Of a DNA stretch of 64,000 nucleotides, positions 2,467 to 30,985 are shown piece after piece (within the stretch, counting starts at the first letter, position 1; every line of letters begins with the position of its first letter). The position numbers were made by a program, and so were the translations under genes. Source of the DNA: Acetobacterium paludosum (lineage in GTDB: Bacteria; Bacillota; Clostridia; Eubacteriales; Eubacteriaceae); contig NZ_RXYA01000003.1 in NCBI RefSeq assembly GCF_008086595.1, positions 82,129 through 146,128 on the forward strand, read 5' to 3'. The notes beneath the pieces were generated by a model, which was not told the origin of the DNA, did no database searches, and worked only from the letters and a program-made list of their open reading frames with translations.

Positions 2467-4668
2467 CTATCCCTCGGTTCTAATGAGATTTGCATACTCA
2501 CCGCCCAGTGTCAGCAGTTCGTCATGGGTTCCTCTTTCCGCCACTTCTCCGCCGCTTAAAACAATGATTTCATCACAATCGCGAATCGTTGACAATCGAT
2601 GTGCCACCAGAATGGTGCTGATTCCTCTTTTATTAATATTCTCACTAACCTGGGCTTCCGTTGCTGTATCCAGGGCGCTGGTGGCTTCATCCATAATCAA
2701 TATCCGCGGATTTTTGCACAATGCCCGGGCAATCTCAAGCCGCTGCCGCTGCCCGCCGCTCAAGTTTTTCCCCCCTTCGCTTAAAACATATTCAAAGGCA
2801 TTGGGCAGTGCCAGAATATCTTCATAAATACAGGCATCTTTTGTGGCCTGTATCACATCCGCTACTGGAATGGTTTCATCCCACATGGTGATATTATCCA
2901 AAACCGTCGCCGAATACATCACGATTTCCTGATCTACGGAACTCATGGTGTTATATCTCAGCTCTGCGGGAATATCTTTTATGTTAATGCCATCAATGAG
3001 TATTTCCCCGCTCCACGGTTGATAGAGAGTAGTAATGGTTTTTGCAATCGTTGATTTTCCGCTGCCGGATGACCCCACTAAAGCAATAGAGCCCCCTGCT
3101 TTTAGTTTTAAATTTAGGTCTTTGATGATGGGTTTTGATAAACGGTTATAACCAAAAGTCATATTTATTAGCTCAATCTCCCCATCCAGCTGATCGCAGT
3201 CAAAGCCGTCCAGAGAAATCTTTTCCGTTTCCAGCGCAATATCTTCCGGATATTTTTCAACATCATCTAGCCGTTGAATGTCAGCGATCATCCCCTGTAA
3301 CGCGGCGCTGGTGCTGACCAGTTCACTCATCGGCTGAGTAAATCCTGCCATCAGGGTGTTAAATGCGACAAATGTACCGATGGTCATGGTTCCCATTAAA
3401 ACAAATTCACCCCCAAACATAAATATCAAAGCTGTCAGGATGCTTGTCAGCAGGGTTGGCAGTACCGAGATAATGGCTTCCATCCCCCCCATGCGCTGTT
3501 CCACCGCCAGGGTTTCGGCGCTGAGTCCGGCAATCCGCGTGAAGAAATTGTCTTCCTCGCCAATCGATTTAATCGTTTCAATTGATTTCAGATTCACCAT
3601 GATCCAGCCAATGGATTTTCCCTGATACTGGAGCAGTACCCGGTTGTTGTCCGCATTTTTTTTAGCCGTATACTGGAGCAGCACGATATTAACGGCAGTA
3701 ATGATGATACCGATTAAAGTTAACGGAACATTATATTGAAATAAAAGGATTAAATATAGCCCCGCGGTGACTAGATTAACCAGTATCCGTGCTAAATTGC
3801 TGGATAAAGCTGTTGCAATCGTATTGATGCTCTGCATTCGGCTGTTGATATCACCGGATTGCCGCTGGTTAAAAAACTCCACCGGAAGTCTCAGCACATG
3901 ACGCAGATAGTCTCCGGCACTGTTGATGGCGATATAGTTTTCCATTCGCGCCAAAGCATTTTCTTTTAACCAGTTGAGAATCGCCTGGAGGATCACCGTA
4001 TACAATAAAATACCAAGAAAAATCGAAATATCAAACTGCTCCGAGTTGCTTAAATAATAGTCCACAAATATTTTCGCATAATTTGCAATCACCAACCCCG
4101 GAATAACCAATAAAACCCCAATAATTAAAACATAGATCAATGGCGAAACACCGCTTTGCGAAAGCCTTTTAAACAGTGCTTTCGATACAACCGGTTTTTC
4201 TCCAGCCTTAGTGAATTCTTCGCCCGGACGTGATTCGATGACCACCCCCGTAAACATTTTTTCCAGTTCTTCCTGGGAAACCACCCGCTTTCCTGAGGCC
4301 GGGTCGCATAAATAGACCTTATCGTTTTTAAATCCTTCCAAAACAACAAAGTGGCTGTAGTCCCAGTGAATAATCAATGGCATTTCCATATCCTTTAATT
4401 TATCCACCGTACATACAAATCCCTGGGCCTCTAAGCCATAAAGCCGGGCCGTTCTGGCAATGTTTCCGGCTTTTACACCGTCTCTGGAAACACCACAATC
4501 AATACGCAGCGTTTCCAACGTTTCATATCTACCATAATAGGCTAAAATCATGGAAAGAGATGCCACCCCGCATTCGACAGCCTCCATTTGCAGTACTACC
4601 GGCACTTTCGCTACTTTAGGCAGTTTTTGTTTCTCATCCCGACTTTTCTTGTGTTCTTGATTCGTCAT
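2467..4668 (-). CDS. Peptidase-containing ABC transporter (PCAT; C39 peptidase + permease + ATPase), LagD/SunT/CvaB-like
   Basis: 733 aa; N-terminal C39 motif with catalytic Cys (QMEAVECGVASLSMIL) and the later His/Asp region (HWDYSHFVVL); TM domain; NBD with GSSGSGKST, LSGGQRQR, ILIMDEATSALD. Confidence 0.85.
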   Translation of the reverse strand: MTNQEHKKSRDEKQKLPKVAKVPVVLQMEAVECGVASLSMILAYYGRYETLETLRIDCGVSRDGVKAGNIARTARLYGLEAQGFVCTVDKLKDMEMPLIIHWDYSHFVVLEGFKNDKVYLCDPASGKRVVSQEELEKMFTGVVIESRPGEEFTKAGEKPVVSKALFKRLSQSGVSPLIYVLIIGVLLVIPGLVIANYAKIFVDYYLSNSEQFDISIFLGILLYTVILQAILNWLKENALARMENYIAINSAGDYLRHVLRLPVEFFNQRQSGDINSRMQSINTIATALSSNLARILVNLVTAGLYLILLFQYNVPLTLIGIIITAVNIVLLQYTAKKNADNNRVLLQYQGKSIGWIMVNLKSIETIKSIGEEDNFFTRIAGLSAETLAVEQRMGGMEAIISVLPTLLTSILTALIFMFGGEFVLMGTMTIGTFVAFNTLMAGFTQPMSELVSTSAALQGMIADIQRLDDVEKYPEDIALETEKISLDGFDCDQLDGEIELINMTFGYNRLSKPIIKDLNLKLKAGGSIALVGSSGSGKSTIAKTITTLYQPWSGEILIDGINIKDIPAELRYNTMSSVDQEIVMYSATVLDNITMWDETIPVADVIQATKDACIYEDILALPNAFEYVLSEGGKNLSGGQRQRLEIARALCKNPRILIMDEATSALDTATEAQVSENINKRGISTILVAHRLSTIRDCDEIIVLSGGEVAERGTHDELLTLGGEYANLIRTEG

Positions 4669-4685: not shown

Positions 4686-5510
4686 CTAGGAGATAATCAA
4701 ATTAATCAGATAATATTTATCTGTGAAAATGGTGGTTTGACAGGATGTTCCTATTTTTATTTGTCCATTAAAACCATTGTTGTCTTTTGTCCATATATAA
4801 GTTCCTTTATCATCAACCTTCGGATCGATAATAATTTTCATTTGAAGAGGATTCTGAACATCTTCAGTCACCTTGTTAATTTGAACATTTCGAACAACCC
4901 CTTTTAAATATCCATATTCGGCAGTAGGCGCTGTTTCAAGTGCGATATAAACCGCATCTCCCGACTGAATGGTCTGAGCCGCTTCATAAGTGGAATAGGC
5001 AATAATGACCGATGGGGTGTTTTCACCTTCTGTTTTTTCAATCTGGCAGAAAGCCGCGTTTTTTTGCAGCGTTTCGCCTTCCTGATAGTTAAGTTCTTCA
5101 ACAACGCCACTTTCCGTTGCATAAATCATGGTTTGACGTTTGACTTTGCTTTTTTCTTCGTCCGTCAACCCAATCCCTGTGGAAAATTCAGATCCCAGAC
5201 TCTCCATTGTAACCACACCCAGCAAATCCCCTTTATTGACATAATCGCCTTCGGAAACAGTAATTTCTGTCAAAACGCCTTCATTTTGACCCACTACTTC
5301 AACCGCACCTTCTCCATAGGCTATTGTTGCAGCCATGGTTGTTGTGATTTTTATGGGTACGGTGACTGAAAAAATAACCACGCCGATTAAAAAAATCAGA
5401 ATTCCCAATAAAATGAGCAAATTTTTAGGACCGATAACCGTCATTAATGCCGCCTGCTCATTTTTCTTTGTGCTTTTATCTTCTTTTTTTTGAAAGATGG
5501 ATTTACTCAC
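4686..5510 (-). CDS. HlyD-family secretion (membrane-fusion-like) protein, short form
   Basis: 274 aa; single N-terminal TM helix, then a biotin-lipoyl-like beta hybrid segment (ITVSEGDYVNKGDLLGVV); lies between the PCAT and the rest of the operon and overlaps the upstream gene by 8 nt. Confidence 0.6.
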   Translation of the reverse strand: MSKSIFQKKEDKSTKKNEQAALMTVIGPKNLLILLGILIFLIGVVIFSVTVPIKITTTMAATIAYGEGAVEVVGQNEGVLTEITVSEGDYVNKGDLLGVVTMESLGSEFSTGIGLTDEEKSKVKRQTMIYATESGVVEELNYQEGETLQKNAAFCQIEKTEGENTPSVIIAYSTYEAAQTIQSGDAVYIALETAPTAEYGYLKGVVRNVQINKVTEDVQNPLQMKIIIDPKVDDKGTYIWTKDNNGFNGQIKIGTSCQTTIFTDKYYLINLIIS

Positions 5511-6645
5511 TGCTTTGTCCTCCCACAGTCGGCTTGTTGTTTTTCACCAATTGATTTCCGACATAGGTCTTTTGGAATACCGGAATACTACTGACAAGCC
5601 GTTTATCGAAGCTTACGGTACCATAAAGAGTATCAAAACTGTTATCTGCCAAAACTTTTTTTATCTCTTCCACATCAAGACTTTGGGCCTTATTGGCGAC
5701 ATCTGCCGCTAGATGCAAAGCAAAATAGGCCTGGGCTGCCGGTAAATCAGGGTCTGTCCCAAAAGCACTTTTGTAAGCCTTTATGAAATCAGCCTGAGGA
5801 CCTGCTTGAGCGTTATTGTCGAAATAACTGGTCACCTGAATCAGTTTTTTCATGTTTTGGGGAATCGTAACGGGTTGAATTTCAATATCATAACTGAGAT
5901 AAATCGGTCGGGTATTTCCGGTTTTATCCAAATCATCAAAAAGGGTTGTAATGTCATCCCCAACACAGGCAGACACAATGGCCTGTGCCCCGAGGCTATC
6001 CCATTTTTTTACATAATATCTGAAATAATCAAGATTTGGCAGATAGGAAACGGCATCCACAATTTCAATTCCTGCCGCCGTGGCATATTCTTCGAAACTC
6101 TGCATATAATCTTTTCCATAGGTATTGCCGGGACTATGAACAAACACTACCTTGCTGATCCCCTGGACCACCAAACTCTGAACCATCTCGTTGGCCATGG
6201 AATTTTCTGAAGGAGCACAAAGATAGGCCCCCTCATTTCCCGAAAGATTTATTTTCGAAGTGGCGATTATGGGTGAAAAAAGGATCTTATTATTCCGCTG
6301 ATAAATACTGGCCACTTTCAGCACATCATCAGTGCTTCGATGACCGATCACAATGGGAAAGTCATCATTTCCCGCCACCATTGTGGCCACTTCAACAGCC
6401 GTATTAGTGTTATCTCCGTCATTAACATAATTTACTTCAATATTTCTATTCAGGATACCTCCCTGTTCATTGATTTCAATGGCTGCCAGCTTCAGGCCGT
6501 TGGCAAATGTCGCCCCGTAATCTTCAGAAAATGGATAAATGGCATCCACTGACAGGGTCCCGGTGTCCGACGTTTTACCGGTACAGCCGCAGCAGATCAT
6601 CCCACATATTAGCATAGCTGATAGTATCATTAGATATTTTTTCAT
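5503..6645 (-). CDS. Lipoprotein, periplasmic-binding-protein type I fold (Leu/Ile/Val-binding / ANF-receptor-like substrate-binding protein)
   Basis: 380 aa; signal peptide with lipobox (LICGMICCGC); type I periplasmic binding protein fold along its length; embedded in the RiPP operon. Confidence 0.65.
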   Translation of the reverse strand: MKKYLMILSAMLICGMICCGCTGKTSDTGTLSVDAIYPFSEDYGATFANGLKLAAIEINEQGGILNRNIEVNYVNDGDNTNTAVEVATMVAGNDDFPIVIGHRSTDDVLKVASIYQRNNKILFSPIIATSKINLSGNEGAYLCAPSENSMANEMVQSLVVQGISKVVFVHSPGNTYGKDYMQSFEEYATAAGIEIVDAVSYLPNLDYFRYYVKKWDSLGAQAIVSACVGDDITTLFDDLDKTGNTRPIYLSYDIEIQPVTIPQNMKKLIQVTSYFDNNAQAGPQADFIKAYKSAFGTDPDLPAAQAYFALHLAADVANKAQSLDVEEIKKVLADNSFDTLYGTVSFDKRLVSSIPVFQKTYVGNQLVKNNKPTVGGQSSE

Positions 6646-8358: not shown

Positions 8359-10085
8359 TTATTTCCCTCCATTTTATTTAGGGATCGCTCTGCTTCCGCA
8401 TAGAAATTAAGATTCTGCTCCTGAGGATCGAGATTCTTTCTGCCCTGCTGAAGCACTTCTTTTTTTGAAAGCTTTCCGTTGCACAGCTTCAAGAGCGTAT
8501 AGTCTGTTTCATCCAAAGTCTTGTCAAAAATTTTTGGTTTTTCTCCGCTGACATCCGTGTACAGCCATAATTCAAAAGTTCGATGAATAATCGCCTCTTG
8601 TTCAGCTTTTCCCAATTGATCATTTAAAACATACTCATCCGAAGCGCGCATTTTCCAGTAGGCATCATCAATGGGAATATTTTTATAGACATAATCATTC
8701 CAGCGGGTAAAAACCCCGTATTCCCGACCCAATCGGTAGGAATCCAGAATCACTGCTTCCGGAATTTTTCCGTCAAAATAAATTTTGCGCATTTCATTCT
8801 GGAGGCGCTTATTAGCCTGCAACCGAATATTTGTCAGATCAGTAAAATCCAGCTCTGCTGTTCTGGAAAGCGGAATATCTTCGTTGCAGCAATCAATCAG
8901 ATCTTCATAAATTTCCATGCCAAATTTCTCCGGGTTAAGGGTAATCGGCGTTTTGGGATAGGGTAGAAATGAAAAATAAGCGGTTTCGAATTGCCCCGGG
9001 GCATCGTAGAGAAGTTCCATAATCAAGTCTTCAGATTCTTGAATGGTTTCCCGGGTTTCATGGGGACCGCCGATAATAATATTACCGGAAATGCCATGAA
9101 TACCCGATTCAACGCAATGATTAATCACATTCACTGCCATTTTTCGGGTGATTTTTTTGTTGTAACTTTTTAAGACCTGATCACTTCCGGATTCCAGACC
9201 AAAAAAGATCTTCTTTAGACCGGCATCCGCCAGATTCTTCGCCATATCGCGATGCTTGTCGATGGTTGAAATATGAGCGCTGGCAAACCACACAAAGTCA
9301 TAGTCTGCTCTGATTTTTTTTATTTCATCGCAAATCTGATTCACCCGTTTATTATCTAAGGTAAAGGTATCATCCAGAAAATTAATGTAGTTAATAGCCG
9401 GATTACGCTCAAAATTCCCCCGAATTTCCTTCATCAATGAAGGAACCGAGTGACGACGCACCCGCTTGGCATTGGCCCCTTCATAACAGAAGGTACACCC
9501 AAAGGGACAGCCCCGTCCGGTTAAGATGGGCAGCAGTCCGTAATATTTATAGTCGTTGGTCAGGGTGATATCCGGCCAGGGAATATCGTCCAGGTCTTCT
9601 GGCGGCTTTCTAGGCTCGGTTTCCACCAATTTTCCTTCTTCATCCCGAAAAATAATCCCCCGGATGTCTTTCAGCGCTCCTTTTTGCGCGATAAAAAAAT
9701 CCATTAATTCCAGAATGGTTTCTTCACCCTCGCCAATACAAGCGGCTTCGATGGATGCTTCTTTTAAAAATCCGGCATCCATCCCCGCCGTCTGAGGCCC
9801 TCCCGCCAATAAAGAAACTTCTGGAAAAAGCTTCTTCACTTCTTTAGCAAAAATTGTCACCCAGTGAATGTTGTTGAAGTCGCAGTAAAAGCCAATGATT
9901 TTGGGTTTGTCTTCTTTTTCCATCAATTCTTTGACGTAATTCATGGCTTCTTTGGCATAGCCCTGAAACATCTGGACCTCATAGCCTTTATTCGTTAATA
10001 ATTGGGTCAATATATTCATTCCCAGGTTGCTCCCGGGAATATAACCGCTGACATAGCGATGTGATTTGATCAATAATAGTTCCAT
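8334..10085 (-). CDS. Cobalamin (B12)-binding radical SAM enzyme (class B rSAM) with a C-terminal RRE-like extension
   Basis: 583 aa; rSAM motif GCPFGCTFCYEG; B12-binding N-terminal domain; overlaps the downstream gene by 25 nt (translational coupling). Confidence 0.85.
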   Translation of the reverse strand: MELLLIKSHRYVSGYIPGSNLGMNILTQLLTNKGYEVQMFQGYAKEAMNYVKELMEKEDKPKIIGFYCDFNNIHWVTIFAKEVKKLFPEVSLLAGGPQTAGMDAGFLKEASIEAACIGEGEETILELMDFFIAQKGALKDIRGIIFRDEEGKLVETEPRKPPEDLDDIPWPDITLTNDYKYYGLLPILTGRGCPFGCTFCYEGANAKRVRRHSVPSLMKEIRGNFERNPAINYINFLDDTFTLDNKRVNQICDEIKKIRADYDFVWFASAHISTIDKHRDMAKNLADAGLKKIFFGLESGSDQVLKSYNKKITRKMAVNVINHCVESGIHGISGNIIIGGPHETRETIQESEDLIMELLYDAPGQFETAYFSFLPYPKTPITLNPEKFGMEIYEDLIDCCNEDIPLSRTAELDFTDLTNIRLQANKRLQNEMRKIYFDGKIPEAVILDSYRLGREYGVFTRWNDYVYKNIPIDDAYWKMRASDEYVLNDQLGKAEQEAIIHRTFELWLYTDVSGEKPKIFDKTLDETDYTLLKLCNGKLSKKEVLQQGRKNLDPQEQNLNFYAEAERSLNKMEGNKWILYRQP

Positions 10086-10161
10086 CTTCCACCTATCCCC
10101 CTTGAACTGCCGACTGCAACTTTCTCAGTCAGTACTTCGAAGGGGAAAATCCCCTTCTTTT

Positions 10162-24652: not shown

Positions 24653-25600
24653 ATGTTTAACCAAATAAAATATGAAATTCAAGGTATAACAAGTTCCATA
24701 ACCTATGAGAATGGTAATATCAAGGATTGCAGAGTAAATAAACCGAATGTTCTCCATACAAACTACGGTGATTTTACACCTCGCTTTTCACATCCCGACG
24801 AACGAAAGAAGGATACTAAAGCATTGTCCTTCTATGAAAACGGAAATATAAAAAGCATTGCATTGGAAGAACGAAAAAAGGTGGAAACACCAATCGGGGC
24901 CATAAAAGCTGAGTTGATCACCTTTCATGAAAACGGCTCTATTGACAGCCTTTTTCCATCTAATGGTCAAATTGGTTTTGGCTGGTCTATGGAAGACGAA
25001 ACTAAACTCACCGAAAAATATGATTTTCAATTTCCTTTCGGAGAATTTTCCGCAAGAATTATAGCTGTTCGTTTTTATGAAAGCGGACAGTTAAGCAGCC
25101 TAATCCTATGGCCGGGAGAAATAGTTGAAATTGCGACGCCAATCGGAATAATTCCCATTCGAATCGGATTTAAGCTCTATGAAAATGGCTTGTTAGAATC
25201 AGTTGAACCCGCCCATCCAATCATAGTCAATACCCCCATTGGAAATGTGACCGCCTTTGACTACACCGCTTTGGGTATGGATGCCGATTTCAATTCAATC
25301 CATTTTGATGAAAAAGGTAATTTATCCGGTGTTTTTACTAATAGCGATTTCGCAATAAAAAATTTAAACACCAACAAACGCGAAAATATTTTTCAATATT
25401 TGCGTTTAGATATGCTCAGTGACAACTTTCTAAAAGTCCCTACCGTGATCCAATTTGAAAAAGATACCGTTGTTTTTGATACTAACGAAAATACGACTTC
25501 TTATAAAATCAGCGAATGTGAGTTCTTAATCTTATATGATGGGAAATTCGAAGATAACGCCTGCAGTCCAAATGACTGTTCAGAGTGTATCGGATGTTAG
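24653..25600 (+). CDS. anf-operon-associated protein made of MORN-variant-like repeats (xYENGxLxSL ~23-aa repeats), with a C-terminal Cys cluster
   Basis: 315 aa; repeats YENGNIKD, YENGNIKSI, FHENGSIDSL, FYESGQLSSL, LYENGLLESV, FDEKGNLSGV; C-terminal CSPNDCSECIGC; co-oriented 60 nt after anfK. Confidence 0.5.
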   Translation: MFNQIKYEIQGITSSITYENGNIKDCRVNKPNVLHTNYGDFTPRFSHPDERKKDTKALSFYENGNIKSIALEERKKVETPIGAIKAELITFHENGSIDSLFPSNGQIGFGWSMEDETKLTEKYDFQFPFGEFSARIIAVRFYESGQLSSLILWPGEIVEIATPIGIIPIRIGFKLYENGLLESVEPAHPIIVNTPIGNVTAFDYTALGMDADFNSIHFDEKGNLSGVFTNSDFAIKNLNTNKRENIFQYLRLDMLSDNFLKVPTVIQFEKDTVVFDTNENTTSYKISECEFLILYDGKFEDNACSPNDCSECIGC

Positions 25601-25610
25601 GGAGGATGTT

Positions 25611-26213
25611 ATGGATATAGCAGTTCTTGTTAATGCTTCGGGAAAATCATCTGTATTCAATGAAAATGGTATCATTAAAGTTTATTCAAAAAATACGCAA
25701 GGCTGGAATTTGACTAGAGAAAAAGTCTACTCCATCGACCACTTAGAAAACGGAAATGGTTTAAGAGATTATATGAATGAAATTGGTCTCTGGTTGAATA
25801 GTTGCAAGGTTCTCGTTGTTAAACGAATCCGCGGCATTCATTATCTGGCTCTTGAACATTTCCAAATATCAATGTTAGAAATCGAAGGCTATCCTGAAGA
25901 GTTTTTAGAATATATCCAGGATTGTGAGAAACACCAGCGCACTGAGGAAAAAGTTCCTTTAGAAGCAATTGCTATTTTCGAACAACATCCTGGTTATTTT
26001 TACATTGATTTACAAGACGTCATGTCTGGAAAGACATCGTATAATTCCAAACAAATATTACTGCCATTTTTTAAAGAAAAAGCATTCACTCAACTTGAGA
26101 TTGTTTGCGCACATATTCCAAAATGGTTTGAAAAGGAGCTTCCTCTTTTAGGTTTAAAATATAATAGCGGTGAATCCGGTCGTTGCCTAAAGGTCCAAGT
26201 CTCTAAAGTTTAA
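25611..26213 (+). CDS. anf-operon accessory protein (possibly AnfO-like); function unknown
   Basis: ATG at 25611 preceded by GGGAGG; 200 aa; last co-oriented gene after anfK, where anfO/anfR-type genes sit in other anf operons. I did not recognise the sequence itself. Confidence 0.35.
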   Translation: MDIAVLVNASGKSSVFNENGIIKVYSKNTQGWNLTREKVYSIDHLENGNGLRDYMNEIGLWLNSCKVLVVKRIRGIHYLALEHFQISMLEIEGYPEEFLEYIQDCEKHQRTEEKVPLEAIAIFEQHPGYFYIDLQDVMSGKTSYNSKQILLPFFKEKAFTQLEIVCAHIPKWFEKELPLLGLKYNSGESGRCLKVQVSKV

Positions 26214-26586
26214 TATATAGAAAACTAATTATGCTTATAATATTTATTATTATAAAATACCTCCAGTTAACGGGATTAGTTCAAGATCAATCATGCATTC
26301 GATACATATCTTTGCGATTTGTATATGTATTGAATGAAAATCTCCGAGCTAATCCATTTATTTTTTTTGTTCACAGTTCTCATAATTACAAGCCACATAA
26401 ATACATAAATAATTATTGGAAAATACCTCCGATTGTATTTTATTATCAGAGTTTTAATTTCAACAAGTTTTTTCACATAAAAAAAGTGCACCTTCAAACG
26501 TCCGGTTTTCATCTAACATTTGGGGTGCGCTTTTTTATCTGGTTATTTTATCCCTTTTTTCTTTTCAAAAATCCTAAATTTTAAAA

Positions 26587-26796
26587 TTAATCAACCATCA
26601 ACATTACAGAGGTTGCTTTGATTACTGCTGTTGCATCAGAACCGACGGTTAGACCTAATTCTTTAATTGATGCCAATGAAATAGTAGATGAAACAATATT
26701 TCCATTTCCAATATCAATTTTTACAATACCGTTCACAGCGCCTTCTTCAATACTGACAACTTTGCCTTTTAGTTGATTTCTTGCACTTAGTTTCAT
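26587..26796 (-). CDS. mop: Molbindin (single TOBE/Mop domain molybdate-binding protein)
   Basis: 69 aa from the ATG with RBS CAGGAGG; MKLSARNQLKGKV...DIGNG...SSTISLASIKELGLTVGSDATAVIKATSVM fits the Mop/TOBE domain. Confidence 0.75.
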   Translation of the reverse strand: MKLSARNQLKGKVVSIEEGAVNGIVKIDIGNGNIVSSTISLASIKELGLTVGSDATAVIKATSVMLMVD

Positions 26797-27506
26797 AATA
26801 GCCTCCTGATTTAAATTTAATAAGACAATCATTCAGATTATCTTTTGTTATTTATATTGAAACATATTAAACTTAATAATTCCTTAATTTTTTCTTCTTT
26901 TTTCTTTTAATATCTATCTTTGTTCTCAAGCAAATGGCTTTTTAAAGCTATTTATTGAATTTCTTCTATTGTTTAAAATTCAATAACCATTCAGATTATC
27001 CGTATTTTTTATTTTCAATGATTGTTTCATTTTGATCATTTTAATATCTTTTAACTGCGTTTCACTATGATTGATTGCAATTGGTTATATCTAACTATGT
27101 TTAATTAGGTTAAGTTTGTTTTAAAAATTCTGATTTTGTATCGAGACAAGCATCCACATTACAAATAATCTTAATGCCAATGAAAAATGTTATTGAGTTC
27201 TATTTTTGTGATTTTTATTTAACTTACTATTGTATATTTCATCCAGATCAATTAAACTATATAGAAAGCGTTTATCTTTTGTTTTTGTTGAGTTATGACT
27301 TACCATTTTATAAAAGATGGCGCTCTTTTTTATTTTAATAATCATCATTTTCTGTCCAACAACATCGTGTAATAAACAATTCAATTCTAAAAACGAGAAA
27401 ATCACAAATTCTGTATTTTAAAAAAAAATTCCAGGATTTATCTGAATCATAAGTAAAAGCAAACGAATTTTCAACTAACTAAAACGATTAGACGAGGAGA
27501 TATCCT

Positions 27507-29447
27507 ATGACTAACAAAATCTGCAATCCAACAAATGATGAAATAACGAAAATGCCTCTGGGTACAAAAATAAATGAATTTGAAGAGAAAGAAACATCGA
27601 TAACAGCGTTAATCATTGCTAAAGAACAAGCAGAAGCGAAAAATGTCGTCATGATTAAAGAATTAGAGCACTACCGTAATTTTTTCAAAATCAGCCTGGA
27701 TATTTTTTTAACAGTAGGCCCGGATGGCATGATCACAGATGTTAATATGGCTGCTGAAAATGCCGTGGGGATACCGAGAGAAAAGCTGATTGGGAAAGAA
27801 ATTTCAACGTATGTTACCGATTCTCATAAAGTGCAAGCTGGACATCAACAAATAATACGAGAAGGTGTAATCGTTGATCATGAGCTTAATCTCAAACATG
27901 TTAATGGAGCCACTACTCCCTTTTTATTTAATGCATCCTCATACAAAGATAGTGACGGAAAAATAGTCGGCGTGTTTGCTGCTGGAAGAAATATTACCGC
28001 TACCCGGAAAGCTGAAGATGATCTAACCCACCTAAAGAATAATCTTACCCAATTAGTCAAACAACGGGCGGAAGAGCTAATCCTTGTCAATAAAGAGCTT
28101 GCTTTTCAAAATGAAGAGAAAAAGAAACGAGCTGCTGAGTTGATTATTGCCAATAAAGAACTCACCTTTCAAAATGAAGAAAAAGCGGACCGGGCTGCTG
28201 AGTTGATTATTGCTGATAAGGAGCTTGCCTTTCAAAGTGAAGAAAAGGCGGACCGGGCCGCTGAATTAGTTATTGCTGATAAAGAACTCGCCTTTCAAAG
28301 TGAAGAGAAAGCCGACCGAGCCGCTGAGTTGATCATTGCCAATAAAGAGCTTGCCTTTCAAACCGAAGAGAAAGCCGACCGGGCCGCCGAGTTAATTATT
28401 GCTGATAAAGAGCTCGCCTTTCAAAGTGAAGAGAAAGCCGACCGGGCTGCTGAGTTAATCATTGCTAATAAAGAGCTTGCCTTTCAAAATGAAGAAAAAG
28501 ATAAAAGAGCATCTGAGTTAATCATTGCCAATAAGGAGCTTGCCTTTCAAAGTGAAGAGAAAGCCGACCGGGCCGCCGAGTTAATCATTGCCAATAAAGA
28601 GCTTGCCTTTCAAAATGAAGAAAAAGATAAAAGAGCCGCCGAATTAGTACATGCTAATGAAAAGCTTGCCTGTCAAAAAGAAAAAATAGAAAAATTTAAT
28701 AATCAATTAGAATGTCGGGTAATAGAAAGAACGGCAGAACTTGAATCTCTGAATAAAGAATTAGAAGCCTTTTCATATTCCATGTCTCATGACTTAAAGG
28801 CACCTTTAAGGCATATAGCTGGATATATTTCACTTTTGATCAAGAAATATGGCAGCTTATTTCCTAAAGAAGGCGAACATTATCTGGATATGATTTCTTT
28901 TTCTGTCGAAAATATGAATGAATTAATTGAAGGACTACTCCATTTTTCAAGAAGTGGCAGAATCGATATGAATAAAAAGATTCTAAACATGAATGAAATA
29001 GTGAACACTTTGATTCAGCCTATCAAAGAGCAGGAAATTGAACGCAAAATAGAATTTAATATTGAACCGATGCCTTTAGCTTTTGGAGATCTTGAAATGA
29101 TGAAGTCTGTGTGGGCTAATCTTATCGAAAATGCCGTCAAATTTACTAGAAAAGAAGATTTTACAAAAATAGTTATTGGGGCAAATGAAGAAAAGGATGA
29201 AAATATTTACTATATTAAAGACAACGGAGTTGGTTTTGACATGAACTACTCATCAAAATTATTTACTGTTTTTCAACGCTTGCATTTACGTAAGGACTAT
29301 GAAGGTACCGGAATAGGATTAGCAACTGTTAAAAGAGTTATCACAAGACATGGTGGAAAAATATGGGCTGAAAGTAAAGTTGGAGAAGGTGCAAGCTTTT
29401 ATTTCTCACTGATTAATAGAAAGGGAAATGAAAAGACATGGAAATGA
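27507..29447 (+). CDS. Sensor histidine kinase: PAS domain, tandemly repeated signalling helix (10 x 20 aa), HisKA + HATPase
   Basis: 646 aa; PAS region (residues ~60-170); repeats ELIIANKELAFQNEEKADRAA; phosphoacceptor SHDLKAPL; the G1/G2 boxes of the ATPase are present. Confidence 0.85.
   Translation: MTNKICNPTNDEITKMPLGTKINEFEEKETSITALIIAKEQAEAKNVVMIKELEHYRNFFKISLDIFLTVGPDGMITDVNMAAENAVGIPREKLIGKEISTYVTDSHKVQAGHQQIIREGVIVDHELNLKHVNGATTPFLFNASSYKDSDGKIVGVFAAGRNITATRKAEDDLTHLKNNLTQLVKQRAEELILVNKELAFQNEEKKKRAAELIIANKELTFQNEEKADRAAELIIADKELAFQSEEKADRAAELVIADKELAFQSEEKADRAAELIIANKELAFQTEEKADRAAELIIADKELAFQSEEKADRAAELIIANKELAFQNEEKDKRASELIIANKELAFQSEEKADRAAELIIANKELAFQNEEKDKRAAELVHANEKLACQKEKIEKFNNQLECRVIERTAELESLNKELEAFSYSMSHDLKAPLRHIAGYISLLIKKYGSLFPKEGEHYLDMISFSVENMNELIEGLLHFSRSGRIDMNKKILNMNEIVNTLIQPIKEQEIERKIEFNIEPMPLAFGDLEMMKSVWANLIENAVKFTRKEDFTKIVIGANEEKDENIYYIKDNGVGFDMNYSSKLFTVFQRLHLRKDYEGTGIGLATVKRVITRHGGKIWAESKVGEGASFYFSLINRKGNEKTWK
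28066..28680 (+). repeat. In-frame 60-nt tandem repeat (~10 copies) encoding the 20-aa unit RAAELIIA(N/D)KELAFQ(N/S)EEKAD
   Basis: Copies differ mainly at synonymous positions (gcc/gcg/gct; gagttg/gaatta/gagtta) while the peptide repeat is conserved. Confidence 0.85.
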
Positions 29448-29872
29448 AAACAATTCTTTATGTTGACGACAACCCGTTAGATATCGAACTAACTCTGGAA
29501 GCGATAAAAGAAAATCAAATTTTAAATCCGATAATTGTGGCTAATGATGGATTAGAAGCATTAGCGTATTTAAAGTCAGAGGGGATCTATGCGAAACGAA
29601 AGCCCGGAAATCCATGTATGGTTTTGCTTGATTTGAAAATGCCAAGAATGGATGGCCTTGAATTTTTGGCTATTGTTAAAAAGGCTGAAAATTATAAACG
29701 CATACCTGTTATTCTACTTACCTCCTCTCGAGAGGAAAGTGATTTAATCAAAGGGTATAATCTCGGCGTAAATGCCTATGTTGTAAAGCCACTTGATTTT
29801 CTGGCATTAATTGAGGTCGTAAAACAGATTGGAATATTTTGGGCAATTATTAACGAATTGCCGTCGGAATAA
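29438..29872 (+). CDS. Single-domain response regulator (CheY-like receiver)
   Basis: 144 aa; start overlaps the HK stop; conserved receiver Asp (LLDLKMP) and Lys. Confidence 0.85.
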   Translation: MEMKTILYVDDNPLDIELTLEAIKENQILNPIIVANDGLEALAYLKSEGIYAKRKPGNPCMVLLDLKMPRMDGLEFLAIVKKAENYKRIPVILLTSSREESDLIKGYNLGVNAYVVKPLDFLALIEVVKQIGIFWAIINELPSE

Positions 29873-29881
29873 GGTGATAGT

Positions 29882-30916
29882 ATGAATAAGAAATGTTATT
29901 TGAAAATACTTGCATTAGAAGATTCACCAATGGATGCTGAACTGATCGTTGAGTGTTTAAATGAAAACTATGAAGCAGAAATTAAAATGGATGTTGTTGC
30001 GAAAGAAAGAGATTTTGTTTCAGCACTATCTTCAAGAAAATATGATGTGATTTTAGCTGACTTTATGTTGCCTGATTTTAATGGGTTTGCAGCATTAACC
30101 CATGTGAAAAGAATATGCCCGAATATACCATTTATTTGCGTCTCCGGATTTATTGGTGAGGAAACCGCGGTAGAACTTCTGAAGCAAGGCGCCACAGATT
30201 ATGTTTCGAAAGATAAACTGGGTCGATTGGTGCATTCGATCGAAAGAGCTTTAAAAGAATCAAAAGAAAATGAGCAGAATGAAAAAATGGCAATGGAATT
30301 ACTTGAGACCAATGTCTATCTTAAAAATAGTTTGGCAAGTTTTCAACAATTAACTGAAGCGGTAATTAATACAATCGCATTAATTGTTGAAAAAAGAGAT
30401 CCTTATACGGCCGGTCATCAGGAAAGGGTGAGTAAACTCGCCTGTGCAATTGCAGTGGAAATAGGATATGATACCTCATTTGTGGAAGGAATTCGAATAG
30501 CAGGCTTATTGCATGATATTGGGAAGATTGCAATACCAATAGAAATTTTATGTAAACCCGGACAGCTCAGTGAAGATGAGTTTCGTTTGATTAAAATTCA
30601 TCCAAAAGTAAGTTACGAAGTGTTAAAGGAAATTGAATTTAATCGACCTATTGCCGATATCGTTCTGGGACACCATGAAAGACTGGATGGCAGTGGGTAT
30701 CCAAATGGATTAAAAGGTGATGCCATATCAATCGATACAAGAATTCTTTCAGTAGCCGATGTCGTGGAAGCAATGGTTTCATATCGGCCCTATCGACCTG
30801 CACTCGGCTTAAACTGTGCCTTAGCTGAGATAAATAAAAATAGCGGCAACTATTATGACAAAGTTGTTGTCGATACCTGTACTAGGCTCTGTTCCAATGG
30901 GAATTTTAAATTTTAG
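29882..30916 (+). CDS. Response regulator with an HD-GYP phosphodiesterase output domain (c-di-GMP hydrolase family)
   Basis: 344 aa; receiver domain; HD motif LLHDIGKIAIP and HHERLDGSGYP (GYP motif). Confidence 0.85.
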   Translation: MNKKCYLKILALEDSPMDAELIVECLNENYEAEIKMDVVAKERDFVSALSSRKYDVILADFMLPDFNGFAALTHVKRICPNIPFICVSGFIGEETAVELLKQGATDYVSKDKLGRLVHSIERALKESKENEQNEKMAMELLETNVYLKNSLASFQQLTEAVINTIALIVEKRDPYTAGHQERVSKLACAIAVEIGYDTSFVEGIRIAGLLHDIGKIAIPIEILCKPGQLSEDEFRLIKIHPKVSYEVLKEIEFNRPIADIVLGHHERLDGSGYPNGLKGDAISIDTRILSVADVVEAMVSYRPYRPALGLNCALAEINKNSGNYYDKVVVDTCTRLCSNGNFKF

Positions 30917-30930
30917 CATCATTAATCTGC

Positions 30931-30975
30931 ATAAAAAACAGCTGTTGTAGTTTAACATCACAACAGCTGTTTATT
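30931..30975. terminator. Bidirectional rho-independent terminator (12-bp stem aacagctgttgt / acaacagctgtt) between convergent genes
   Basis: Perfect inverted repeat flanked by an A-run on one side and a T-rich run on the other; between the stop at 30916 (+) and the stop at 30986 (-). Confidence 0.6.
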
Positions 30976-30985
30976 TCATTTCTAA

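Follow-up and report, generated by a model that had tools for sequence, protein, structure and literature searches.

The 64,000-nt stretch of the Acetobacterium paludosum genome analysed here (contig NZ_RXYA01000003.1, hereafter the window) carries a gene for a soluble sensor histidine kinase of 646 amino acids (aa), in which an array of ten tandem 21-residue units lies between the PAS sensor domain and the phospho-acceptor domain (HisKA or DHp). The protein is 100% identical to A. paludosum WP_148566127.1 / MBC3888840.1, annotated as "PAS domain S-box protein", and is on record on two contigs under these two NCBI accessions. It has the composition of a HisKA-type PAS kinase, with Pfam E-values of 4.4e-11 for PAS_4, 1.4e-9 for HisKA (PF00512) and 4.5e-20 for HATPase_c (PF02518), and with His428 in an H-D-L-x-x-P box (SHDLKAPLR). 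Matches to kinases of the PDB reach E 4e-35. The protein has no transmembrane-like segment, the maximum 19-residue Kyte-Doolittle mean being 1.06. The gene and its parts, with the evidence for each, are the following:

27507..29447, + strand: soluble PAS-HisKA-HATPase_c sensor histidine kinase gene, 646 aa (open reading frame list, Pfam, identity)
27582..27641, + strand: vestigial unit N-terminal of PAS, aa 26-45, EEKETSITALIIAKEQAEAK (comparison with the unit consensus and with A. tundrae NEEKEKWTAALIIAKELAEEK)
27699..28007, + strand: PAS sensor domain, aa 65-167, ending in the DIT-like motif N162-I163-T164 (Pfam PAS_4 / PAS_9 / PAS, alignment)
27996..28064, + strand: helical connector from the PAS C-terminus to unit 1, aa 164-186 (AlphaFold2, distance table)
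28065..28694, + strand: ten 63-nt / 21-aa units, aa 187-396 (Tandem Repeats Finder, register table, pN/pS, AlphaFold2)
28695..28727, + strand: 11-residue insert FNNQLECRVIE, of hendecad or stutter type, from the array to the terminal signalling-helix core (register table)
28728..28790, + strand: terminal signalling helix (S-helix) and start of DHp helix 1, RTAELESLNKELEAFSYSMSH (sequence, PDB alignment, unit-profile match)
28764..28955, + strand: HisKA (DHp) domain, aa 420-483 (Pfam PF00512, 1.4e-9)
29088..29411, + strand: HATPase_c catalytic domain, aa 528-635 (Pfam PF02518, 4.5e-20)

Tandem Repeats Finder gave a period of 63 nt over 28074-28686, with 8.8-9.5 copies, 82% matches, 0% indels and a score of 604-788, and this array was the sole tandem repeat with a score of at least 80 in the window. 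The period stays at exactly 21 aa through the ten units with zero indels and, because 21 is 3 x 7, every unit contributes exactly three heptads. The original prediction, made from the letters of the sequence, had placed ten tandem in-frame copies of a 60-nt / 20-aa unit between the PAS and DHp domains. The place and the number of units hold (28065-28694), but the unit has 63 nt and 21 aa, and the consensus given with that prediction itself counts 21 letters. The correction matters because three heptads fit exactly into 21 residues; with 20, the heptad register would not be kept. The segment then taken as the final copy (RTAELESLNKELEAF...) is real but stands out of the 21-residue phase, at a distance of 32 residues (21 + 11) between R376 of unit 10 and R408.

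Units 2-9 share the consensus RAAELIIA(N/D)KELAFQ(N/S/T)EEK(A/D)(D/K), while units 1 and 10 are divergent. Two subtypes can be told apart among units 2-9 (28128-28631) and in the homologues of the clade, an N-type (A-N-KELAFQ-N-EEK-[DE]K) and a D-type (A-D-KELAFQ-[ST]-[EG]EK-AD). Unit positions 9, 16, 20 and 21 covary, the pair 16-20 having the highest mutual information. The insert at the position of FNNQLECRVIE is common to all Acetobacterium-clade homologues and has a hydrophobic spacing of 4-4-3. Since, by the family consensus, the hydrophobic positions -31, -27 and -23 before the His are spaced 4-4, the insert corresponds to a hendecad or stutter. It is followed by the terminal helix, whose ERT signature is E407-R408-T409 (the E407 codon being the last of the insert) and whose His428 is the cat codon at 28788-28790. 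From N162 to E190 there are 28 residues (4 heptads), and from E190 to His428 about 34 heptads. The degenerate unit N-terminal of PAS sits within a helix predicted by AlphaFold2 at residues 18-62, suggesting that PAS appears inserted into a helical spine derived from the repeat.

Comparison of the unit with the segment preceding the phospho-acceptor His gave clues to its origin. The profile of unit positions 1-12 (RAAELIIANKEL) matches this segment at one offset, -20..-9 (RTAQLESANKEL), with a score of 29.4 against -6.8 +/- 4.1 at other offsets (z 8.9). In four homologues (P0051, P0066, P0038 and P0006) the last unit doubles as the DHp entry, ...RAAELIIANKELEAFSYSVSHDL, and unit and DHp entry differ by a single residue (KEL-AF versus KELEAF). 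The pre-His segment also aligns to the S-helix/DHp of the bacteriophytochrome kinases 9ys3 / 8uph (E 4e-35), the junction reading ELERLSE-ALSRSNAELDAFGHTVAHDL. Its hydrophobic positions before the His (-23, -20, -16, -13, -9, -6 and -2, with R at -20) alternate in steps of 3 and 4 and put the R at heptad position "d". Judged by these alignments, the 21-residue module derives from the S-helix core that precedes the phospho-acceptor His, and the unique profile match, together with the homologues in which the last unit becomes the DHp entry, bears out the earlier idea of a reiterated S-helix.

The S-helix was described as a coiled-coil segment, parallel, between sensor and DHp, with ERT at heptad positions c-d-e and with g, a, d and e as the most conserved positions (Anantharaman, Balaji & Aravind 2006, PMC1592074). 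The array resembles it in several respects. Array and terminal helix lie between PAS (65-167) and HisKA (420-483). The core has an Arg at "d", followed three residues later by a Glu at "g" and then a Leu at "a" (R-x-x-E-L), and conservation is far higher at positions a, d, e and g than at b, c and f. The terminal copy carries the full ERT with R at "d", and the output partners known for the S-helix (HisKA, GGDEF, HD-GYP, SpoIIE/PP2C) are found across the array family. There are also differences. An S-helix occurs as one module, with about 40 residues in five heptads, whereas the window protein has ten 21-residue units, an 11-residue insert and a terminal copy, and in homologues the sub-module is repeated up to about 20 times. 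The ten repeated units carry [K/D]-R-A instead of E-R-T, and [K/D/N]-R-A if the family is taken as a whole: the R is kept at 98%, an A stands in place of the T at 98%, and the E has given way to K, N or D. Extra invariant polar core residues, Q15 and K19, are found as well.

Other known systems share part of this arrangement. The linker of the PAS/LOV kinase YF1 has about 20-30 residues. As in PAS/LOV kinases (FixL, YF1; 4gcz), the order is PAS, helix, DHp and catalytic domain, with a linker that is continuous with DHp helix 1 and heptad-periodic in length (PMC6798134), but the window helix extends over about 288 residues from the PAS C-terminus into DHp helix 1 and is made of a conserved repeated unit, not of unique sequence. 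Poly-HAMP proteins (AskA/AskB, Aer2; PMC13446029) are likewise soluble proteins with long tandem coiled-coil transducer arrays, often without an input domain, and their copy number is variable, with up to 31 HAMPs in AskB. A HAMP unit, however, comprises two helices and a connector in about 50 residues and forms a four-helix bundle, while the array unit is a connector-free single helix of 21 residues; the Pfam scan of the window kinase revealed no HAMP. Bacteriophytochrome kinases (PsBphP1 8u8z; 8uph / 9ys3) provide the closest solved cores (E 4e-35), with an aligned S-helix/DHp junction, but they have one S-helix, no array, and a PAS-GAF-PHY photosensory module as sensor. Length also evolves through whole-heptad indels in chemoreceptors. 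Alexander and Zhulin reportedly sorted these in 2007 into classes by heptad number, with whole-heptad indels in the long signalling coiled coil. Their indels are symmetric and paired in an antiparallel hairpin with a conserved tip, whereas here single 21-residue units are gained or lost in what is most likely a parallel stalk. The array is conceptually a variation on known things, namely the S-helix, the heptad-periodic linkers of PAS kinases and transducer arrays such as poly-HAMP.

To describe the distribution of the module, we searched for the unit in full-length homologues, in cluster representatives and in genomes. The unit is present in nearly all of the top 120 full-length homologues. 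A three-unit query against 1.84 billion cluster representatives retrieved 1329 proteins at E <= 1e-3, of which 838 remained at a cutoff of 1e-10 and 321 at one of 1e-30. With a profile run on a single genome for each species, at least 572 stretches were confirmed. The longest contiguous arrays have about 20 units. Among the matches listed, the majority belong to Bacteroidota, and Clostridium, Ignavibacteriaceae, Atribacterota, Lentisphaeria, Verrucomicrobia, Spirochaetes, Anaerolineaceae, Paraglaciecola and Methylophilaceae are also found. Among 74 representatives, the outputs are HisKA (50), HD_5 (5), GGDEF (4) and SpoIIE (2); the domains upstream include PAS, GAF and CHASE3. Only one of the 74 has a HAMP domain anywhere. 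The window array is a member of a widespread "poly-S-helix" repeat family that is real, ancient and selected.

Within the window, a six-frame motif scan found the unit in no open reading frame besides the kinase. Pfam and NCBIfam scans of the kinase returned no model covering the array. PDB searches gave no match either with aa 187-417 (array and terminal helix) at E up to 1 or with a three-unit profile at E up to 10. No description of the module was found in the open-access literature, although an earlier description elsewhere is possible. The module falls into an annotation gap, in which, lacking a Pfam or NCBIfam model, it draws spurious matches such as PF24081 (PH_SLA1). This model matches the window kinase weakly and the hybrid kinase P0121 (aa 231-296) with 34.1 bits, against a gathering threshold of 27. 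PF24820 gives a weak, sub-threshold match across the PAS region of the window protein, and, together with PF15286, it is listed repeatedly among the precomputed annotations for many homologues. Consensus matches of sigma-70-like and terminator-like type occur once per unit on both strands (28143-28616); since there is one per unit, these promoter and terminator candidates were discarded as by-products of the repeat.

We then evaluated heptad continuity with 2377 successive unit spacings from 267 array proteins. Multiples of 21 account for 2350 of the spacings, and 19 of the 27 exceptions are multiples of 7 (about 3 expected, p about 1e-13), for a total of 2369 multiples of 7. One such exception is a 14-residue unit with exactly seven residues missing (KRAAELAFQNDEKEK) at aa ~140-160 of P0121, a protein of 1220 aa. 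The distance from N162 in the PAS motif NIT to His428 is 266 residues (38 x 7) in the window protein and 182 (26 x 7) in the A. tundrae orthologue. A register was sought by conservation in 804 units sampled without motif constraint. The information content was 4.26 bits at a, 4.17 at d, 4.13 at g and 3.62 at e, compared with 2.22 at b, 3.22 at c and 2.12 at f (means of 4.05 bits at a/d/e/g versus 2.52 at b/c/f), and the register with R1 at "d" was the best of the seven. Hydrophobicity failed to single out a register, the conservation-based register being the informative one, and Fourier power at 3.5 residues is uninformative because the sequence is exactly 21-periodic. As in a helix, mutual information is highest for residue pairs at i+4, i+3, i+7 and i+11.

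A helical structure is also predicted. The AlphaFold2 monomer model of the window protein (26-sequence alignment, mean predicted local distance difference test (pLDDT) 71) has helices at 164-291 and 299-451, with an array pLDDT of about 65-77 and a break below 50; that of the six-unit orthologue has helices at 164-242 and 250-367. The best fold matches are PAS/LOV-coiled-coil-histidine kinase proteins (YF1 4gcz, SB2F1). Proline is close to zero in the units and glycine amounts to 1.3%. A long helix over aa 164-451, continuous bar one low-confidence break, and a heptad register that runs on from unit to unit both agree with the original prediction. Two other assignments were rejected. For a leucine-rich-repeat-like beta-alpha unit, the Asn is one residue off LxxLxLxxN, and composition and AlphaFold2 indicate helix. 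For a single alpha-helix (SAH, or ER-K) domain, the conserved hydrophobic residues do not fit (L5 and L12 at 99-100%, A8 at 100%, I7 at 78%, F14 at 85%), only positions 16-21 (NEEKEK) being SAH-like.

Divergence within the array was compared with divergence between species, as proportions of synonymous (pS) and nonsynonymous (pN) differences. Among units 2-9, pS is 0.54 and pN 0.066 (pN/pS 0.12). Between A. paludosum and A. tundrae, the corresponding values are 0.31 and 0.055 (0.18) for the kinase part and 0.37 and 0.13 (0.36) for the N-terminal part. The copies thus differ chiefly at synonymous sites, and by these ratios the array peptide is constrained no less tightly than the catalytic core. 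Since most unit pairs have a pS of 0.4-0.8 against 0.31-0.37 between the two species, they predate the paludosum/tundrae split. The array is therefore old and under purifying selection, as had been proposed. Unit pairs 7/9 (pS 0.24) and 4/6 (pS 0.23) are younger and go back to recent duplication or conversion inside the array. Every unit differs from all the others, and the longest stretches repeated exactly within the array measure 44, 32, 31 and 28 nt. Exact repeats of this size suffice for occasional homologous unequal exchange, whereas phase variation of the slippage type does not fit.

Copy number varies in steps of whole units. The A. tundrae orthologue is syntenic (TOBE upstream; REC, REC-HD_5 and Band_7 downstream) and has six units, with identical DNA in two assemblies. 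The related Acetobacterium kinase P0053, in a different genomic neighbourhood, has four, and the remaining members of the clade have 6 to 14. In every member of this clade unit 1 begins 25 residues past the DIT motif of PAS, and downstream of the array come a single degenerate unit, the 11-residue insert and then the ERT helix, with the His at a fixed in-frame position. The frame relative to PAS and His is unchanged among the 10-, 6- and 4-unit Acetobacterium kinases. Between A. paludosum and A. tundrae, the edge units are orthologous (86% nt identity) and the interior units have no one-to-one orthology.

The distance from the first unit to the His also varies by whole units in six of the seven multi-member 90%-identity clusters examined. 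It takes values of 112, 196, 217, 238, 280 and 301 residues in cluster 3 and of 154, 175, 259, 301 and 322 residues in cluster 4, while four further clusters show one-unit differences. Some of these differences could be assembly artefacts, many members being metagenome-derived, but those between isolate genomes cannot. The suggestion that copy number tunes signalling is not supported: copy number does vary between close relatives, but nothing indicates an effect on signalling. Two further proposals were not upheld. A molecular ruler is hard to reconcile with a soluble protein in which there is nothing evident to measure. A contingency locus is at odds with the divergence of the units, with a longest exact internal repeat of 44 nt and with in-frame changes; length changes that stay in frame provide no on/off switch.

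On balance, we think it probable that the array forms a continuous parallel coiled-coil signalling stalk of S-helix-derived units, which preserves phase. The array would represent a ten-fold tandem amplification of a three-heptad, 21-residue module of the S-helix core and, in the kinase homodimer, would form one continuous two-stranded parallel coiled coil. Heptad statistics, together with the homology of the protein to histidine kinases that are dimers, lead us to infer the parallel homodimeric arrangement. The coiled coil would form the central part of one uninterrupted helix that begins at the PAS C-terminus (residue 164) and extends into DHp helix 1 (about residue 451). Position "a" would be occupied by L5, L12 and K19, "d" by R1, A8 and Q15, "g" by E4, E11 and E18, and "e" by A2, N9 and N16, so each unit may alternate a short Leu/Ala zipper with an invariant polar core (Q15-K19-R1'), as does the ERT core of a single S-helix. 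If continuous, the coiled coil would measure an estimated 31 nm over the array and 43 nm over the whole helix.

Because each unit comprises exactly three heptads, gain or loss of a unit would alter the length of such a stalk and leave the PAS dimer in the same angular phase to DHp/His, and copy number could then drift or be selected without breaking the kinase. A rotation, scissoring or register change driven by PAS would be passed on from unit to unit, all of them identical and marginally stable, until it reached DHp, and would control autophosphorylation; phosphotransfer would then proceed to the adjacent single-domain REC protein and the REC-HD-GYP protein. Signal transmission through the array is suggested by analogy with two systems: the function of YF1 follows the length of its linker in a heptad-periodic manner (PMC6798134), and the S-helices of a homologous phytochrome kinase (PsBphP1) transmit by scissoring (PMC11316798).

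Several observations weigh against this stalk. No register yields a fully hydrophobic a/d core, half of the core being polar and invariant (R1, Q15, K19). The conserved hydrophobic residues I7 (78%) and F14 (85%) fall at the outward position "c", where a simple two-stranded coiled coil leaves them unexplained. The distance from the array to the His does not fall into one class modulo 7 across the family: it is 0 in the majority, and also 3, 6 and 1. Array-to-His and PAS-to-array distances are confined to a few discrete modulo-7 classes, with a strongly non-uniform distribution (chi-square p 2e-24). Both AlphaFold2 monomer models fold the helix back on itself, with a turn of pLDDT below 50. This fold-back is probably an artefact of modelling a monomer, because the break of the six-unit orthologue lies at a different position within the unit. 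On physical grounds, a rotation or scissor signal may not survive over about 31-43 nm of marginally stable coiled coil. Finally, 48 of the 267 array proteins have no upstream sensor domain. These are array-only soluble kinases, with a Met, fewer than 45 residues, the array and HisKA/HATPase, and they open directly with the repeat (MKKNDADELVIANRELAFQ...). One example is P0028, in a complete Mucilaginibacter chromosome. Kinases of this kind are seen at 5001-6503 of locus L084 (Mucilaginibacter sp. X5P1, CP183230.1) and in L085 and L086. In such proteins the array cannot be merely a wire from sensor to kinase, and the module must also have a role of its own, perhaps as a dimerisation or regulatory element or as a sensor.

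The array-only kinases argue for another reading, in which the array itself is the input or regulatory device: a metastable coiled coil that senses a physical cue (temperature, ionic strength) or docks a protein, with copy number setting a threshold or cooperativity and the PAS of the window protein acting as a second input. The invariance of the polar core triple Q15/K19/R1 and the strong conservation of F14 and I7 outside the core are in keeping with such a device, and in the nearest analogue, the poly-HAMP arrays, an input domain is typically missing too (PMC13446029). Most array proteins, however, have PAS, GAF or CHASE3 upstream, and no conserved partner gene was seen at the examined loci except response regulators. 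Many of the best genome matches come from cold-habitat taxa, a further point in its favour, but this impression may be due to sampling. Taken together, we regard an input device as possible but rather unlikely. A related and similarly doubtful proposal would be that the poly-S-helix chain switches cooperatively, serving as a length-independent wire in most proteins and as the sensor in array-only kinases, with copy-number polymorphism as adaptive tuning of a threshold.

Of the cold-habitat matches, Clostridium lacusfryxellense, C. frigoriphilum, C. psychrophilum, Flavipsychrobacter and Paraglaciecola may be named (loci L006, L007, L008, L018, L032, L077 and others). A. paludosum and A. tundrae are themselves psychrotolerant.

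An antiparallel hairpin, in which the dimer would form a chemoreceptor-like four-helix bundle with PAS beside DHp at any copy number, seems improbable. Both monomer models break near the middle into two roughly equal arms able to pair, and a four-helix bundle would bury the two hydrophobic faces of the unit, a/d (L5, A8, L12) and b/c (I6, I7, A13, F14). The low-confidence break, however, lies at RAAELII in one model and at QSEEKAD in the other and shifts with array length. Monomer modelling of a dimeric coiled coil commonly yields artefactual self-pairing. Moreover, no unit carries a turn motif, Gly and Pro are virtually absent, and units are gained or lost singly, not as symmetric pairs.

We consider it very improbable that the array is a neutral spacer, in which phase-neutral 21-residue insertions would be tolerated and kept uniform by gene conversion or unequal crossing-over instead of selection. 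The lack of one-to-one orthology between interior units, the 94-95% identity of units 7/9 and 4/6, which exceeds that of the orthologous flanks, and the variable copy number inside 90%-identity clusters are all compatible with it, and the exact repeats of 28 to 44 nt could support the recombination required. The same residues are nevertheless conserved in several phyla, with a constraint at least equal to that of the catalytic core, and a pS of 0.54 against a pN of 0.066 among units implies that the peptide is kept by selection and not by homogenisation.

Although short-read assembly can collapse or expand tandem repeats, and part of the copy-number differences in metagenome-derived cluster members could have arisen in this way, an assembly artefact or a classical contingency (phase-variable) locus is hardly credible, given that k-mers or reads longer than about 45 nt should find a unique path through units that are never identical, that the identical protein is found on two contigs and the same six-unit gene in two A. 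tundrae assemblies, that arrays occur in hundreds of independent genomes, one of them a complete chromosome, and that the 63-nt units are diverged (82% matches) and in frame, with no frameshift switch and with all observed length changes in frame.

How signals travel along the coiled-coil linkers of sensor kinases is debated, and rotation, scissoring, register shift and a dynamic bundle have been considered. The family provides a natural length series, with the same kinase core behind 3 to about 20 three-heptad units and with some members sensor-less. It makes testable the distance over which a signal can act, the effect of phase (7n) versus length, and the use of a repeated S-helix core as sensor. 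For protein engineers, the module would offer a phase-neutral extension for synthetic receptors.

The two genes following the kinase in the window form a cassette with it:

29438..29872, + strand: single-domain response regulator, 144 aa (open reading frame list, Pfam Response_reg, conserved gene order)
29882..30916, + strand: REC + HD_5 (HD-GYP-type) protein, third gene of the cassette (Pfam, synteny)

The start of the response-regulator gene overlaps the kinase stop by 10 nt, and its product is probably the cognate partner of the kinase. The cassette recurs across phyla (Bacillota and Bacteroidota) as an array-kinase, a single-domain REC protein of about 145 aa and a second REC-containing gene (the window and loci L001, L003, L084, L085 and L086). 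The second REC gene varies, encoding REC-HD_5 in the window, REC-PAS-kinase in Mucilaginibacter and Pedobacter, REC-PAS-GGDEF-HD in another Acetobacterium and a 212-aa REC-only protein in L086. An Rfam scan of the window gave no match. At the A. tundrae locus (L001), a DUF772 transposase-like gene lies between TOBE and the kinase (3516-4358) and a dCache-MCP gene after the REC-HD gene (8606-10120); both are absent from the corresponding intervals of the window (26833-27506 and 30917-30985). The upstream neighbours in the window, at 24653-26832, are a MORN-repeat-variant protein, AnfO (associated with Fe-only nitrogenase) and a TOBE protein of the molybdate-binding type, on the minus strand.

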